64,000 nucleotides of DNA from IMG/VR virus record IMGVR_UViG_3300011113_000238, positions 1 through 64,000 of that record; one strand, written 5' to 3'. The notes under the pieces are model-generated. The model saw only the letters and a list, made by a program, of their open reading frames with translations. It was not told the origin of the DNA and made no database searches. The DNA is from a virus. Positions 371 through 4,871 of this stretch are shown here, one piece after another (the first letter of the stretch is position 1; each line of letters begins with the position of its first letter). The translations under genes were made by a program, and so were the position numbers.

Positions 371-2239
371 ATGCCAAAGACCATAAAAGAAGTTTATAGT
401 GACTATGCAGGTGTCACAACTATTGAATACAGCGACGACACAACTAGAACTTATACTGTTGACGATGTGGCTACTGTAAAAAGCAATCCTCTCACCGGGG
501 GGCTTACGTTGAAAGCCGGGTCAGAAGTGGGGGTTTTCCTCAAACCTTCTCAGCTAGACGCCATCAACGCTCTGCGTGCATCTTCTGTCGGCTCACTGCT
601 TACGAACTGGGCTGGCGCTTCGATCATCGCAAACGGCACCCCTGCCAGCGGCTCTGCTGGCGTAGTCACCACAGATATTGCACCTGCCAAAGAAGCCACC
701 GGCACAGCCGTGCGCCTTATTGGCGATGCCAGTGTCCGTGCATCGGCAGTGTCTACATTCGCCGCAACTCCTACCACTGCAAGTTTTACGGGTATTGCGC
801 TCTGGATGAAGGTAAAGGGTCGCACGCAAGGACCCGTCATGATCCAGCTTTATCTGGGGGCAACTGCAGACCCTTACACCGGCAAGAGCATCGCGCTCAC
901 CTTTGGCGCTCCTAACGATGGCAAGTGGCATTTGATTTACCTGCCGCGCGGGGCATTTGCCCCCATCAACTCCTTTGTGCTCGGCACGGACACCATCCAG
1001 TCCATTGGCTTGCGTGACCGCAATGCTGGCGGCATTGGCTACACCGGCATGCTGACCAACGCTGAAGAGATGCAGCTTGGCCCGGTGTACGCCTCGCCCT
1101 ACAGCCGACCCAAGTTCCTGATTCGCATGGATGACTCGCTCCTAGACGTGATTCAGCCGGATGGCGGTCAACAATTCACCGCAGACGGTGTAACCCGCTC
1201 GTGGTCGCATTACGACCTCATGAGCAAATACGGCTTCGGCTCTAAGGGTTCGTGCTTCCATTTGACCCGTCGCATCGGCAGCGTCAACACCGGCAAGCCA
1301 GTTATGAATGCTGGACATTTGGAAACTTTGGCAAAGGCTGGCTGGTCAAACTGCATCCAGACCCACAATGACCCGGTGGATGCGTCCAACAATGGCTTGT
1401 TGCTCATGGGGCCGGTTGGTTATGCAGCCAAAGCGATTGCATCGGTGGACGCCTCTGCCGACACACTCACAGCCGCCGCTGCGCACAACATTTCTACCGG
1501 AAACCTTTACTGGGGCTACCCCATCGTGTTCACCGGCTCGGATTTGCCTGCGCCACTTTCAGTGGGGACTGTCTATTGGGCGAGGGCGGTGGATGCAACG
1601 GCCTTCACGCTGCACCTGACCGAAAACGACGCCATTTCCAACGTCAACCGCGTCGATTTGACGAGTGTAGGCGTTGCGGCAAACTTCACCTATAGATATG
1701 CCAACAGCGCCGCCGATACAAGCGCGATGCAGAGCGATCTTGTTGCCGGTATCAACTTCTTGACCAGCTTAGGCTACGGCGATACAGCCAAGATTTGGGC
1801 ACCCAATCAAGGCGCAATGAACGAAGACACCCGCACAGCGGCCTTGGCTGCTGGCGTCAAAATGACGCTGGGCATTGGGCGCTTGGGTGCATCCTACGAT
1901 CAGCCGCAAGTGCGACACATCAACATGGAGACCTCTGGGGGGGCAGGCGTTGGCGGCATGGTCTTAGACCCCGTGTTGACTGTGCCGAACGCGCTCCAGA
2001 CTGATGGCGTTGCAACACCTGCCAATGCGCGAACTTATGTCAACGCTGTAATTGCCTGCGGTGGTATCGGCTCCAACTATCACCACACTATCACGACGGC
2101 CAACGGCCCCACGCTGGCTGCATACCTCGATGAGCTGCGTTTGCGCGTCTCCGAGGGCGCGTGTGACGTGGTAACGGCCAAAGAGCTATTGGATTATGTA
2201 GAGGCTGCCAAGTCCATGACGCCGGGCGTTGTTTACTAA
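371..2239 (+). CDS. Probable virion-associated protein with conserved N-terminal anchor and C-terminal polysaccharide deacetylase (NodB-like) domain
   Basis: NodB-like motifs LIRMDDS, LAKAGWSNCIQTH, NYHHT and VVTAKELL; first ~44 aa paralogous to 2892..4850. Confidence 0.65.
   Translation: MPKTIKEVYSDYAGVTTIEYSDDTTRTYTVDDVATVKSNPLTGGLTLKAGSEVGVFLKPSQLDAINALRASSVGSLLTNWAGASIIANGTPASGSAGVVTTDIAPAKEATGTAVRLIGDASVRASAVSTFAATPTTASFTGIALWMKVKGRTQGPVMIQLYLGATADPYTGKSIALTFGAPNDGKWHLIYLPRGAFAPINSFVLGTDTIQSIGLRDRNAGGIGYTGMLTNAEEMQLGPVYASPYSRPKFLIRMDDSLLDVIQPDGGQQFTADGVTRSWSHYDLMSKYGFGSKGSCFHLTRRIGSVNTGKPVMNAGHLETLAKAGWSNCIQTHNDPVDASNNGLLLMGPVGYAAKAIASVDASADTLTAAAAHNISTGNLYWGYPIVFTGSDLPAPLSVGTVYWARAVDATAFTLHLTENDAISNVNRVDLTSVGVAANFTYRYANSAADTSAMQSDLVAGINFLTSLGYGDTAKIWAPNQGAMNEDTRTAALAAGVKMTLGIGRLGASYDQPQVRHINMETSGGAGVGGMVLDPVLTVPNALQTDGVATPANARTYVNAVIACGGIGSNYHHTITTANGPTLAAYLDELRLRVSEGACDVVTAKELLDYVEAAKSMTPGVVY
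483..507 (+). repeat. Left boundary site L1 of cassette 1 (GCAATCCTCTC-ACC-GGGGGGCTTAC)
   Basis: Imperfect 11-3-11 palindrome at the end of N-terminal homology (NPLTGG); GC content rises after it. Confidence 0.55.
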
Positions 2240-2260
2240 GCCCCTCAGCACGAAGCTAAC
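2234..2260 (+). repeat. Right boundary site R1 of cassette 1 (TACTAAGCCCCTCAGCACGAAGCTAAC)
   Basis: 26/27 identical to 4845..4871; contains the stop codon. Confidence 0.85.
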
Positions 2261-2279
2261 CTAAACCTAAAATGAAAAC

Positions 2280-2840: not shown

Positions 2841-2891
2841 TAGGTCGCGCTACCAAGTGAGTGACTAACTCATATTAAAGAAAGGGCTAAT

Positions 2892-4850
2892 ATGCCAAAG
2901 ACAATTAAAGAAGTTTATACGGATTATAGTGGGTACACTACCGTGGAGTACAGCGATGATAGTACTCGGAAATACAGTGTGGATGATGTACCTACTGTGA
3001 GTACTAATCCTCTCACAGGGGGGGTTAGCCTTTTCGACATGGTCGTCGTGCCCGGATTGGTCGCTAACGACGTGGCGTTTGCGGAATCTAACACGAAAAA
3101 AATACAGGCCGCGCTTGATACGGGTGGCTATATTTTTGCGGGTGTTCCCGGTGAGGTGTATATCAACAACACTCTGATTATTGGCTCTAAAACTAGCCTT
3201 TTCATGGGTAAAAACACCCGCCTGAAGCTGGCACCGAATACCAATAAGAGCATGCTGAAAAACGCCAATTGGGGCTCTGTGGTGCAAGTTGTCACATCGC
3301 TGACAACACCCGATGCTGGCTTGAATGGCGTCTGCGTCGTAAGCGCTCCGCATGGTTTGGTAGTTGGAGATTACGCCTTGATTCTTGGCGCAACCCAAGA
3401 GGGCTATAACGATATTTGGAAGGTAACTGGCGTAAGCACCACAACGCTGCCGAATGACACGTTTACATTTAATATTGCCGCACACGTTCCCAATGAGCCG
3501 CTAGTAACTCCCGCCACTGGAACTATCACAGTCTGCAAGGCAGATTACGACATTGAGATTTCCGGCGCATTTGACTACAACGGCGCAAATCAGACAACTC
3601 CTGACACTTATGAGCGCCATGCCGTTTATATCCGGCGCGTTCACAACTATCGCTTACTAAAGTCGCAGGGCTACGGTGCCATGAAGTACGCATTCATGCA
3701 TGCGAACATGTACAGCAGCGTGTTTGATGACATTTTCTTCGACACGTTTTCTGACGGAATTCACATGGACTGCTCAGGTAAGCGCAACACGATTTCACGT
3801 ATTCGCGGAAAAACCGGTGATGACTTGGTGGCAATCCTGCAAGGTGACTATCCGCAATACAAAGATGCGGGTTATCTCCTTGGCTACATTGATGACCTTA
3901 CAGTATCTGATGTAAAGATCGGCGGGGGCTTTAGCGGCATCAACTTGCTGCCCGCCAACGTATCCGGCGCGGGCATGGGCACCGTGCGACTACGGGACTT
4001 CTCCGGTCGCATGTCCGGTGGCGCATCTATCGTAAAGTGCTTGTCTGACACCACGGCGGTTGCAACATTCAACGGCGTCATTCAATCCGTTGAGATTGAC
4101 GGCATTACATCTACCATTGGAGCCAATCAGCCAATGGTTGGTGTTACCTGCAACGTGCGTTCACTCTCGATAAGTAACATAGTTGCCAATTTGGGGAACG
4201 TATCTGGTAGCTCTACGGCTGTAAACGTATCTGGCACTTATGGGCAGTGCGGTTCCTTGAGAATCAACAATGTACAAGTGACAGGAGGCGCTGCAAGCTC
4301 TTTGGTTTACATTGCTGGCGTTATTGGATTAACGCCAGGAACCCAATACGACGCGGCTATCGTTATCAACAACGTGACGGGCAAAAACTTTGGCACTGGC
4401 GTAATTCTTACAAGCACAGCCAGCTTCAACGGAATTTGCGCGATCAATGATTACTACGTTGATACGGCTGGATTTGTGTTTGACGTTGCAAAGGCGGGTT
4501 GGACGCTTCACCTTAATGGCTATTCGCACATCGCATACACCACGCAAGCAATCAACATTCGCTCAACGGCAAACTCAGGCATCCGCATTTGCGCAAGCAA
4601 CTTGGGCAACGAGGCGAGAAGTGGAAACTTCCTGCTCCTTGCATCAGCCGTTGCAAGCTCTGTGAGTGTGTTCGGTTGGGATATTGGTGTTGATGTTAAT
4701 AACGCAGCGATTGCGCGTACCGCAGGCTCTTTTGCGTTCAACAGAGCGGCTGCCGCTGGGACGCTGGTTCAAAACAACCTTGTCGCATGCGACGCGACAG
4801 CGACAACAGGAAGCTGGAAGCAACTGACCAATCCGGCGAATAGCTACTAA
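2892..4850 (+). CDS. Tailspike/depolymerase-like protein with pectate-lyase-type beta-helix and conserved N-terminal anchor
   Basis: NTKKIQAALDTGG...YINNTLII beta-helix cap; SDGIHM...TGDDLVAI GH28-like acidic motifs; N-terminus paralogous to 371..2239. Confidence 0.75.
   Translation: MPKTIKEVYTDYSGYTTVEYSDDSTRKYSVDDVPTVSTNPLTGGVSLFDMVVVPGLVANDVAFAESNTKKIQAALDTGGYIFAGVPGEVYINNTLIIGSKTSLFMGKNTRLKLAPNTNKSMLKNANWGSVVQVVTSLTTPDAGLNGVCVVSAPHGLVVGDYALILGATQEGYNDIWKVTGVSTTTLPNDTFTFNIAAHVPNEPLVTPATGTITVCKADYDIEISGAFDYNGANQTTPDTYERHAVYIRRVHNYRLLKSQGYGAMKYAFMHANMYSSVFDDIFFDTFSDGIHMDCSGKRNTISRIRGKTGDDLVAILQGDYPQYKDAGYLLGYIDDLTVSDVKIGGGFSGINLLPANVSGAGMGTVRLRDFSGRMSGGASIVKCLSDTTAVATFNGVIQSVEIDGITSTIGANQPMVGVTCNVRSLSISNIVANLGNVSGSSTAVNVSGTYGQCGSLRINNVQVTGGAASSLVYIAGVIGLTPGTQYDAAIVINNVTGKNFGTGVILTSTASFNGICAINDYYVDTAGFVFDVAKAGWTLHLNGYSHIAYTTQAINIRSTANSGIRICASNLGNEARSGNFLLLASAVASSVSVFGWDIGVDVNNAAIARTAGSFAFNRAAAAGTLVQNNLVACDATATTGSWKQLTNPANSY
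3004..3028 (+). repeat. Left boundary site L2 of cassette 2 (CTAATCCTCTC-ACA-GGGGGGGTTAG)
   Basis: Imperfect 11-3-11 palindrome; left arm 10/11 identical to the left arm of R2. Confidence 0.6.
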
Positions 4851-4871
4851 TCCCCTCAGCACGAAGCTAAC
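4845..4871 (+). repeat. Right boundary site R2 of cassette 2 (TACTAATCCCCTCAGCACGAAGCTAAC)
   Basis: 26/27 identical to 2234..2260; contains the stop codon. Confidence 0.85.

Follow-up and report, generated by a model that had tools for sequence, protein, structure and literature searches.

The 64,000-nt window analyzed here (positions 1 to 64,000 of IMG/VR virus record IMGVR_UViG_3300011113_000238) carries, close to its left end, two genes that share a short N-terminal anchor and continue into unrelated enzyme bodies, which we call payloads. Each payload lies between two short DNA boxes: a left box (L; AATCCTCTCACCGGGGGG in the window) that sits inside the coding joint and encodes NPLTGG, and a right box (R; AAKCCCCTCAGCACGAAGCTAAC) that is non-coding. 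We found this pair of boxes around other payloads in uncultured phages with unrelated anchors, constrained at the level of nucleotides and coinciding with the points at which close relatives diverge, and we found natural variants of the locus in which payloads have been replaced or deleted. We propose that these are host-range or depolymerase cassettes, which are probably swapped by short-homology recombination at the conserved linker boxes.

Gene 1 occupies positions 371 to 2239 (622 aa) and gene 2 positions 2892 to 4850 (652 aa), both, like the other features of the locus described below, on the plus strand. An earlier note on this DNA, made by inspection, had stated that homology between the two genes reaches only to NPLTGG and that identity resumes at the stop codon. 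Both statements stand: 35 of 47 N-terminal residues are identical, with no other BLASTP segment at an E value below 0.5, and DNA identity returns at the stop codons, where 2234 to 2260 and 4845 to 4871 agree at 26 of 27 nt. The common anchor amounts to 44 to 47 aa, and the DNA repeat behind it spans 139 nt at 73% identity (368 to 506 versus 2889 to 3027). Anchor 1 (371 to 484), the N-terminal 38 codons of gene 1 (MPKTIKEVYSDY...VATVKS), leads into the L1 box AATCCTCTCACCGGGGGGCTT (485 to 505), which codes for NPLTGGL and forms the left boundary of payload 1 (506 to 2239; G+C about 0.58); the right boundary is the R1 box AAGCCCCTCAGCACGAAGCTAAC (2238 to 2260), which overlaps the stop codon at 2237 to 2239. 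The second cassette follows the same plan, with anchor 2 (2892 to 3005; the N-terminal 38 codons of gene 2), the L2 box AATCCTCTCACAGGGGGGGTT (3006 to 3026; coding for NPLTGGV, with a potential 11-bp hairpin), payload 2 (3027 to 4850; G+C about 0.51), and the R2 box AATCCCCTCAGCACGAAGCTAAC (4849 to 4871), which overlaps the stop codon at 4848 to 4850. The 25-bp sites read by hand in the earlier note (L1, 483 to 507; L2, 3004 to 3028; R1, 2236 to 2260; R2, 4847 to 4871) proved accurate in coordinates and letters. As 25-mers, L1 and L2 agree at 20 positions, R1 and R2 at 24, and L and R at 14 to 16. The four hand counts of G+C (23/60, 33/60, 36/60, and 23/60) were also exact, and a sliding profile shows the step that they implied, from about 0.40 in the flanks to about 0.55 to 0.61 in payload 1 and about 0.47 to 0.57 in payload 2. 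In the whole 84,110-nt genome, sites resembling L1 or R1 with up to six substitutions occur at these four places only.

The boxes recur far beyond this locus. A strict R pattern matched 25 IMG/VR contigs, compared to an estimated 3 or so expected by chance, and nearly all of these matches lie at the 3' end of an open reading frame (ORF) of 400 to 760 aa. Among 185,579 prokaryote species, represented by one genome each, the same pattern gave 9 matches against about 35 expected, and only one of the 9, in a probable phage contig within a metagenome-assembled genome (L226), is accompanied by an L box and a long ORF. The first, looser patterns for L and R gave mostly chance matches (an estimated 90 or so and 370 or so expected), and contigs with both boxes were kept. 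Such scans recovered both boxes, on one strand and 1 to 2.4 kb apart, from contigs whose N-termini are unrelated to the window anchor. In all, we tabulated 30 distinct cassettes from metagenomic phage contigs; our statistics on them exclude 41 other metagenome loci, for which only the presence of a long ORF and an L box was recorded. Their anchors, 27 to 110 aa long, fall into 14 clusters (BLASTP, E ≤ 1e-3), with the window-type family accounting for 9 of the 30 cassettes. Almost all of the payloads are unrelated, too, which answers the question raised in the earlier note whether unrelated phages carry different payloads between the same sites. An all-against-all comparison of 19 payloads returned 8 weak or partial similarities only, the best at 56% amino acid identity (L039 and L159). 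Among 50,697 cultured phage records, short blastn searches with R and with an L box returned chance matches only (E ≥ 3), an anchor-alignment scan of metagenome contigs found no relative, and the window's exact 20-nt R core has no match in IMG/VR, its relatives differing at 1 to 2 positions.

L001, an IMG/VR contig related to the window, has the order anchor-payload A, R with hairpin, HNH gene, anchor-payload B, R with hairpin, and small membrane protein, the HNH and membrane-protein genes being those of the window locus; all four payloads of the window and L001 are different. Cassette B of L001 (7965 to 9381) is out of frame at its joint, the anchor ORF (7965 to 8240) and payload ORF (8035 to 9381) being offset by +1 at a run of seven G residues, so that removal of a single G would bring them into one frame. 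Possible explanations are an inactive allele, a slippage-prone switch, and an assembly error. Poly-G phase variation as a general feature was rejected, since only this cassette breaks at such a run (G7) and the other four other-frame cassettes break far downstream. In several loci (L250, L259, L265, L254, and L262), some R boxes stand 3' of a small second gene, encoding a membrane protein of roughly 100 aa or a protein of 87 to 97 aa, rather than 3' of the enzyme gene, and the exchangeable unit can therefore include two genes. In another (L134, 717 to 2522, minus strand), a beta-helix-like gene divergent from the cassette ends in a good R box and has no recognizable L joint, so R can occur without L.

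Both boxes are conserved as DNA. The L consensus inside the coding joint is AAYCC(Y)(S)TCACCGGGGGG, encoding [N/D]P[L/V/F/I]TGG, and the R consensus, just after or across the stop codon, is (C)TAATCCCCTC(W)GCAC(R)A(R)G; in many cases ATTAC or CTAAC comes next, with a hairpin after it. In an information-content profile the two appear as sharp islands of about 21 to 25 nt with unconserved flanks. The earlier note had cautioned that L might be conserved only because it encodes NPLTGG, a caveat that the codons remove. The Leu, Val, Phe, or Ile codon of the joint ends in C (xTC) in 30/30 cassettes (background, 0.25), the Thr codon is ACC in 29/30 (background, 0.27), and the first Gly codon is GGG in 27/30 (background, 0.19). 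Some of the cassettes were found by an L-pattern scan, which biases the L statistics for those; in the subset found by R alone (n = 16), which addresses this bias, both ACC and xTC are present in 16 of 16. The protein motif of the joint runs on for about 8 residues (G-I-x-L-x-A-G-G) over which the codons are variable. Given this variation beyond the joint and the fixed synonymous positions within it, protein conservation alone is insufficient to explain L. The anchors of the window and L001 are only about 70 to 80% identical in DNA, yet AATCCTCTCACCGGGG forms a perfect 16-nt island within them. As for R, it lies 0 to 10 nt from the stop codon in 29 aligned cassettes. The stop codon of L001 lies 8 nt upstream of its place in the window, which implies that R is an element of the 3' flank and not a coding end, and the TAA of R is kept in L013 and L019 even with the real stop upstream.

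Close relatives change payload at the boxes. Three loci (L134, L135, and L202) have backbones that are 92 to 95% identical and carry three unrelated payloads. Between L135 and L202 (95% over 3 kb) identity ends at L+13 and returns at R-7; the corresponding points are L+13 and R-1 for L134 and L202, L+14 and R-1 for L134 and L135, and L+15..18 and R-5..0 for the window and L001. The converse case is provided by L216 and L218, whose flanks and anchors are unrelated and whose payloads are homologous (66% of nucleotides) exactly from L-15 to R+10. A payload common to L135 and L214 ends at R-1 to R-8. These comparisons uphold the earlier proposal of in-frame payload exchange behind a constant anchor, with boundaries at the two boxes. 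The accompanying idea of fixed breakpoints holds in part: relatives do break at the boxes, but some left breakpoints lie 20 to 50 nt inside the payload (L008/L013 at L+44, L003/L005 at L+20, and run X2, below, at 3074), which homologous recombination fits better than a site-specific enzyme does.

Public sequencing runs provide natural variants of the locus itself. This evidence comes from assembled Logan contigs of runs X2, X6, and X9, out of X1 to X22, and gaps were counted only where one contig bridges them. All runs in which parts of the locus occur are metagenomes from rivers and other freshwater, and one of them, X1, is probably the source of the window. In run X2, a river sample from another study, an 83,530-nt contig is about 96% identical to the window over 1 to 500, 2241 to 3074, and 4847 to 5400, and has 1130 and 1724 other letters in place of 501 to 2240 and 3075 to 4846. 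Both payloads have been swapped, and the protein in the first slot (P0003) is an SGNH esterase behind a window-type anchor. A contig of run X6 matches anchor 2 as far as 3023, inside the G run, and continues into a different payload start. In run X9, a freshwater sample, position 490 is fused to 2244 via a shared CTCA in a contig of 1611 nt (depth 52), creating the hybrid box AATCCTCTCAGCACGAAGCTAAC; payload 1 has been deleted by an in-register L × R join. Cassette 2 is absent from most contigs of the same run, in which only 19 other letters separate 2846 from 4867, so that the dominant relative reads from the HNH stop through these letters into the end of R2; a minor contig retains anchor 2. 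Cassette number at the locus is polymorphic, and from X2 and X9 it follows that the locus occurs in nature with two, other, or no payloads. An IMG/VR scan for the hybrid box gave 11 matches against about 23 expected, none of them an anchor-only ORF, and a scan of the fetched loci for motifs of an empty site or circle junction returned nothing beyond ordinary L and R boxes. Of the two outcomes that the earlier note had suggested looking for, swapped alleles were thus found, in the X2 contig with both payloads replaced, but not circle junctions.

The payloads are varied carbohydrate-active enzymes. Among 10 scanned for families, 5 are GDSL/SGNH esterases, 1 is alpha-L-fucosidase-like, 1 is a polysaccharide deacetylase, and 3 have no family; beta-helix enzymes also occur. 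Payload 1 has no sequence match in Pfam, PHROG, or the PDB. Its nearest protein-atlas clusters carry PF01522 (score 0.84; TM-scores 0.60/0.79), which makes a polysaccharide-deacetylase-like enzyme a lead, not a proven assignment. Payload 2 matches tailspike-type clusters (atlas score 0.92; TM-scores 0.84 and 0.74), with the structural alignment beginning at residue 45 to 48, directly after NPLTGG, and we assign it on this basis as a right-handed beta-helix protein of the pectate-lyase or tailspike type, a presumptive depolymerase. Payload G+C lies between 0.46 and 0.57 (standard deviation 0.026), compared to 0.39 to 0.65 (standard deviation 0.079) for the flanks, and the two are uncorrelated (r = 0.06, n = 26). 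Where the phage is rich in G+C, it is the payload that has the lower G+C. Since payload composition is independent of the flanks, the step seen in the window is one side of a general pattern, and the uniformity of the payloads is as would be expected of a shared circulating pool. The cassettes neighbor genes for terminase, portal, major capsid, and cement proteins rather than tail modules (L008, L013, L217, L019, L216, L226, and others). In the group of L008, L013, and L217, where the anchor is only 27 aa, the gene stands between capsid and head-completion genes. Judging by this placement, the cassette enzymes might sit on the head or neck.

L and R also resemble each other. When L is written as AATCC(Y)(S)TCACCGGGGGGATT and R as AATCCCCTC(W)GCAC(R)AAGATT, the consensuses agree at 13 to 15 of 21 positions, for which a binomial estimate is about 0.015 with about 40 offsets allowed. 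Over the 30 cassettes, in-register identity averages 11.6/21 (range, 8 to 15), whereas random payload positions, scored at the best of 21 offsets, reach 9.2, and in the L variants with CCCC (L140, L186, and L187) the first 10 to 12 nt are exactly as in R. The kinship that the earlier note saw in the window accordingly extends to the consensus, and the likeness is suggestive, rather than overwhelming, of diverged direct repeats. The orientation is direct, not inverted. The impression of terminal inverted repeats, which the earlier note had taken at face value, arises because L is partly palindromic (TAATCC...GGATTA) and the left part of R resembles the left part of L. The inverted repeats at the payload ends in the window, 8 to 9 nt long, are not beyond chance (5.4 kb contains 19 chance inverted pairs of 14 to 30 nt), and over the 30 cassettes the longest helix averages 6.10 bp between a payload's own ends versus 5.74 between cassettes (p = 0.14), or 7.10 versus 6.78 with G-U pairs allowed (p = 0.16). 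We therefore rejected pairing of payload ends, whether as RNA or as terminal inverted repeats, because the complementarity is not cassette-specific. L2 folds at -13.4 kcal/mol (z = -2.08), L1 and an L box from L005 are unremarkable, and the R boxes are unstructured (-1.0 to -1.6 kcal/mol, no better than shuffles). A target-site duplication of the kind left by a DDE transposon or miniature inverted-repeat transposable element was not seen, the 3 nt at the putative ends being different (ACC versus AGC/TGC). A tRNA-like or other known RNA family was rejected as well, with no Rfam match in 1 to 6400 at E ≤ 1.

The enzymes encoded nearby were surveyed at several levels. The complete genome has no match at E ≤ 1 to the resolvase/invertase family (PF00239) or the tyrosine recombinase family (PF00589), and none of three further box-bearing records with a completeness of 90% or more yielded a serine or tyrosine recombinase; one record that is 87% complete has an integrase. 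Neither BLASTP clustering nor a Pfam tally revealed a gene common to all cassette neighborhoods. Transposases are absent from the 25 commonest of the 50 families among 112 neighboring ORFs, in a tally that included no search aimed at transposases. The remark in the earlier note that no recombinase is visible is right for serine and tyrosine recombinases but overlooked an HNH_3 homing-endonuclease-like gene between the cassettes (2280 to 2840), which matches Pfam PF13392 over the cut-off (E = 9.5e-6) and PHROG 99 (5.9e-8). L001 has a homologue at the equivalent position, and L218 has one upstream of its single cassette. HNH_3, with 7 members, is the commonest Pfam family among the 112 neighbors, followed by terminase, portal, capsid, and cement proteins. 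Jackhmmer searches seeded with the HNH proteins of the window and L003 placed 5 of these 7, all of them in the window-type anchor lineage (window, L001, L218, and two in L003), and the two largest other groups have no endonuclease among their recurrent neighbor clusters. On this neighborhood evidence, the presence of an HNH gene at the cassettes appears to be lineage-specific.

How might the cassettes move? In the mechanism that we favor, the locus holds two copies of a modular virion-enzyme gene, in which a short, lineage-specific anchor of about 44 aa, which presumably attaches the protein to the particle, continues in frame, across the conserved joint, into an exchangeable and probably polysaccharide-modifying enzyme. 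The boxes, about 21 to 25 nt long, would act as portable homology arms common to at least 14 unrelated anchor families in phages of 0.39 to 0.65 G+C. During co-infection, recombination in or near L and R would swap payloads with the frame kept, and recombination between L and R would remove a payload. The work could be done by general short-homology recombination, with breaks supplied by the endonuclease VII-like resolvase, the exonuclease, and the several HNH nucleases of the phage; the HNH gene between the cassettes may add breaks locally and may account for the tandem arrangement in the window lineage. Efficient recombination needs a minimal homology of about 20 to 30 nt. We favor short-homology recombination because the tract ends are variable, no recombinase was detected, general recombination nucleases are present, and the boxes are close in length to that minimum. 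Several observations weigh against it. Each box has about 12 near-invariant positions across otherwise unalignable lineages, more than passive mosaicism easily explains, and this near-invariance, especially in the non-coding R, points to a sequence-specific reader. Homology arms need no likeness between L and R; the likeness is costly, as the payload loss in X9 illustrates, and is explained only as a relic. A single in-register L × R join was found, the run evidence for exchange consists of assembled contigs only, and part of the cassette set came from the L-pattern scan and carries its bias. In addition, breakpoints at the boxes are partly forced, since nothing else is alignable between different payloads.

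Because the non-coding R is near-invariant and akin to L, a dedicated reader stays in contention. We consider it possible, if rather unlikely, that L and R are att-like sites with the core AATCCYSTCA, read by a phage or host recombinase or nicking nuclease that would, in an integron-like system, excise, insert, or exchange payloads precisely and with the frame kept. The sharpness of the box islands, their near-invariant positions and fixed synonymous sites, the L/R kinship, the partial dyad symmetry of L with its L2 hairpin (z about -2.1), the retention of TAA in R despite an upstream stop, and the exact register of the X9 join within CTCA all fit such a system. They have to be set against the missing serine or tyrosine recombinase in the complete genome and in all three other near-complete records, the lack of a gene common to the neighborhoods, the breakpoints 20 to 50 nt beyond L, an R box that does not fold and has weak symmetry, the failure of the scans of fetched loci and of IMG/VR to find a circle junction or second empty site, and an R pattern at or below chance in bacterial genomes, with no host-side partner site evident. 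For the same reasons (no recombinase, direct repeats, and an unfolded R) the shufflon- or integron-like mechanism and the co-occurring recombinase envisaged in the earlier note find no backing here. A more specific version, in which an att-like reaction with this 10-nt core yields L and R as its two products and an unrecognized enzyme widespread in freshwater phages or their hosts reads them, is unlikely. If true, it would amount to an integrase-less phage integron that inserts and excises cassettes in frame behind any joint-bearing anchor, through which unrelated phage lineages would tap one common depolymerase pool. A role for homing is quite doubtful: the HNH protein encoded at 2280 to 2840 would cut near R or L in phages without the gene, and repair would copy the HNH gene with the anchor-payload-R unit. 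This would account for the tandem arrangement and the duplicated R box with its hairpin, and it agrees with the position of the HNH_3 gene directly upstream of an anchor in the window, L001, and L218, with the 75 nt around R and hairpin that are duplicated (92%) on both sides of the HNH-cassette unit of L001, with the prevalence of HNH_3 among neighbors and of HNH genes in the genome, and with the end of an endonuclease-like gene directly upstream of the cassette in L010. The restriction of the placed HNH_3 genes to one anchor lineage and the lack of endonucleases around the two largest other groups speak against it, as does X9, which keeps HNH with cassette 2 absent and payload 1 deleted, so that the unit is not obligate. 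That the boxes are RNA or expression signals, with recombination a by-product, is very improbable. Such signals could pair the mRNA ends, the right part of L (GGGGGGAUUAG) being complementary to the left part of R (CUAAUCCCCUC) at consensus level, with GGGGCUUA/UAAGCCCC as the pair in cassette 1; or R, which usually lies between stop codon and hairpin, could serve in 3'-end processing or termination; the downstream motif of an Escherichia coli phage analogue (PMC10408124) was predicted to be a terminator. Against this, the payload ends show no cassette-specific covariation, variants in the right part of L (L159, L187, L202, and L216) leave the left part of R unchanged, R is unstructured and without an Rfam match, and it is difficult to see why such a signal should lie within the coding joint of 14 different anchors. 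Finally, the window alone, with R present only twice and L/R agreement of 14 to 16 in 25, could be read as a purely local event in which a single tandem duplication left the R repeat as its scar and L resembles R by chance, an origin for R that the earlier note had also allowed. We regard this as refuted by the recurrence of L and R together in 30 cassettes, 14 anchor families, and many samples, by the 25 strict R matches in IMG/VR, and by the other payloads that close relatives carry between the boxes.

The source of the window is a complete, siphovirus-like phage genome of 84 kb. The record is one contig of 84,110 nt, of which the window is the first 64 kb, with a 127-nt end overlap, a G+C of 0.436, and a completeness rating of 100%. 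It encodes a large terminase (7334 to 8806), a tape-measure protein (24022 to 28104), a J-like central fiber (28936 to 33957), a portal, a tail fiber, ribonucleotide reductase, DNA polymerase, a protein resembling endonuclease VII, an exonuclease, and additional HNH proteins. Among cultured phages, the terminase comes closest to that of Limnohabitans phage DC31, with 49.5% amino acid identity. Neither megablast of window positions 1 to 5400 nor tblastn of gene 1 found anything among cultured phages, and tblastn of gene 2 gave only 7 weak matches there, to phage tail fiber genes. Directly 3' of R2, a stem-loop (4873 to 4893) has a 7-bp G+C-rich stem and is terminator-like without a T run; the fold of 4841 to 4900 reaches -13.5 kcal/mol (z = -2.89), a simple terminator scan did not call it, and the same hairpin stands 3' of both R boxes in L001. 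It is followed by a conserved downstream flank with a gene for a small membrane protein (4901 to 5095), weakly holin-like (Pfam Phage_holin_9, E = 0.025, below the cut-off); from R onward the window and L001 are 84% identical in nucleotides. Just 3' of this gene, positions 5103 to 5131 strongly match a sigma-70-like promoter (11/12), with TTGACT and TATAAT 17 nt apart and TG upstream of the latter; L001 has a near-identical sequence. The A+T-rich non-coding leader 5' of gene 1 (24 to 149) holds 3 to 4 copies of a 15- to 18-nt repeat of the types AAGTTATTAC and AAGGTATTACCTTA, iteron- or operator-like in appearance. Farther along the window, an HNH endonuclease gene lies beside genes for a DNA polymerase exonuclease subunit, an endonuclease VII-like protein, and an exonuclease (45259 to 48714), and another HNH gene lies at 55083 to 55991. 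Related contigs show features of homing elements as well (L003, 5969 to 8476; L002, 4200 to 4330): a portal gene seems to be split by an insert with an HNH/NUMOD-type endonuclease gene and structured flanks, and in L002 the terminase region closes an intron-like stretch. Homing elements are abundant in these phages.

Many phages owe their host range to virion enzymes that remove surface polysaccharides, and the speed with which phages can re-arm themselves is central to phage ecology and to the design of phage therapy. Here, one pair of boxes of about 21 nt marks the exchangeable unit in at least 14 anchor contexts, in phages of 39 to 65% G+C. The boxes supply a concrete, testable rule for the places of in-frame swaps, a sequence tag with which payload enzymes (esterases, deacetylases, glycosidases, and lyases) can be mined from metagenomes, and a model from nature for building receptor-binding modules that can be interchanged. 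Should a dedicated enzyme turn out to lie behind the strictness with which the non-coding box is conserved, they would represent a new kind of cassette system. A literature search with the joint peptide strings returned no relevant paper, and we did not find these boxes described in the literature searched, in which the motifs in the figures and supplement of PMC10408124 were not compared.

Tail-fiber invertons and shufflons (Gin/Cin/Hin, Rci) resemble the present system in that the site falls exactly at the junction between the constant N-terminus and the variable C-terminus of a host-range protein. They use inverted sites, an adjacent recombinase, and C-termini stored in the genome in opposite orientation, whereas here the repeats are direct, PF00239 and PF00589 are absent, and payload 1 contains no antisense ORF longer than 112 aa. 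With integrons the cassettes share promoterless payloads of foreign composition, drawn from a pool and placed behind a fixed expression site between short conserved boundaries, and the "empty" hybrid site of X9 has its counterpart there. The likeness ends at the lack of an IntI-type integrase (no PF00589 match in the genome and none in the three other records), at the lack of a folded, attC-type palindrome in R, and at the arrangement itself, in which each payload is fused in frame to its own anchor instead of joining an array at one attI. Phages SP6, K1-5, and K1E, reportedly described by Scholl and colleagues in 2001, are said to carry two different capsule-degrading tail proteins in tandem, each behind a common sequence, with related phages filling the slots differently; the shared sequences there are said to be promoter-containing intergenic regions within one phage group, in contrast to a coding joint and a related 3' box spread over many lineages.

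Modular receptor-binding proteins (RBPs) composed of anchor and enzyme are well established in phages of Klebsiella and other hosts (Latka et al., mBio 2021; PMC8262889). As in the sections of that article considered here, a lineage-conserved N-terminal anchor is combined with an autonomous C-terminal depolymerase that is exchanged horizontally, even across morphotypes, and several such proteins can occur in one phage. In those sections, however, the modules are defined at protein level and engineered, with no shared nucleotide boxes on both sides; our anchors are much shorter (27 to 110 aa), and the genes lie in head and packaging modules instead of tail modules. The closest precedent is the report that six genera of lytic E. 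coli phages have conserved motifs where the anchor ends and in non-coding sequence downstream of RBP genes, motifs for which a role as recombination hotspots was proposed (Pas et al., Virol J 2023; PMC10408124). The parallels are a motif that closes the anchor coding region at its 3' end and is kept across lineages (here, 30 cassettes in 14 clusters), a second, downstream motif that is non-coding (here R, enriched in viral contigs), and motifs that are more conserved than their surroundings, enclose unrelated specificity domains, and coincide with breakpoints. The differences are as follows. We take the box sequence to be different from the blastn result with cultured records (E ≥ 3), the motif sequences not having been directly compared; the boxes measure about 21 to 25 nt versus 44/95 and 20 nt; and about 12 positions are near-invariant here, compared to a mean identity of 63 to 81% there. 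Here, moreover, 14 unrelated anchors are involved, L is related to R, and the downstream box is not itself a hairpin. What is new relative to the work of Pas et al. is thus the sequence and strictness of the boxes, the breadth of anchors that they serve, the kinship of L and R, the natural replacement and deletion variants, and the placement of the cassettes among head and packaging genes.

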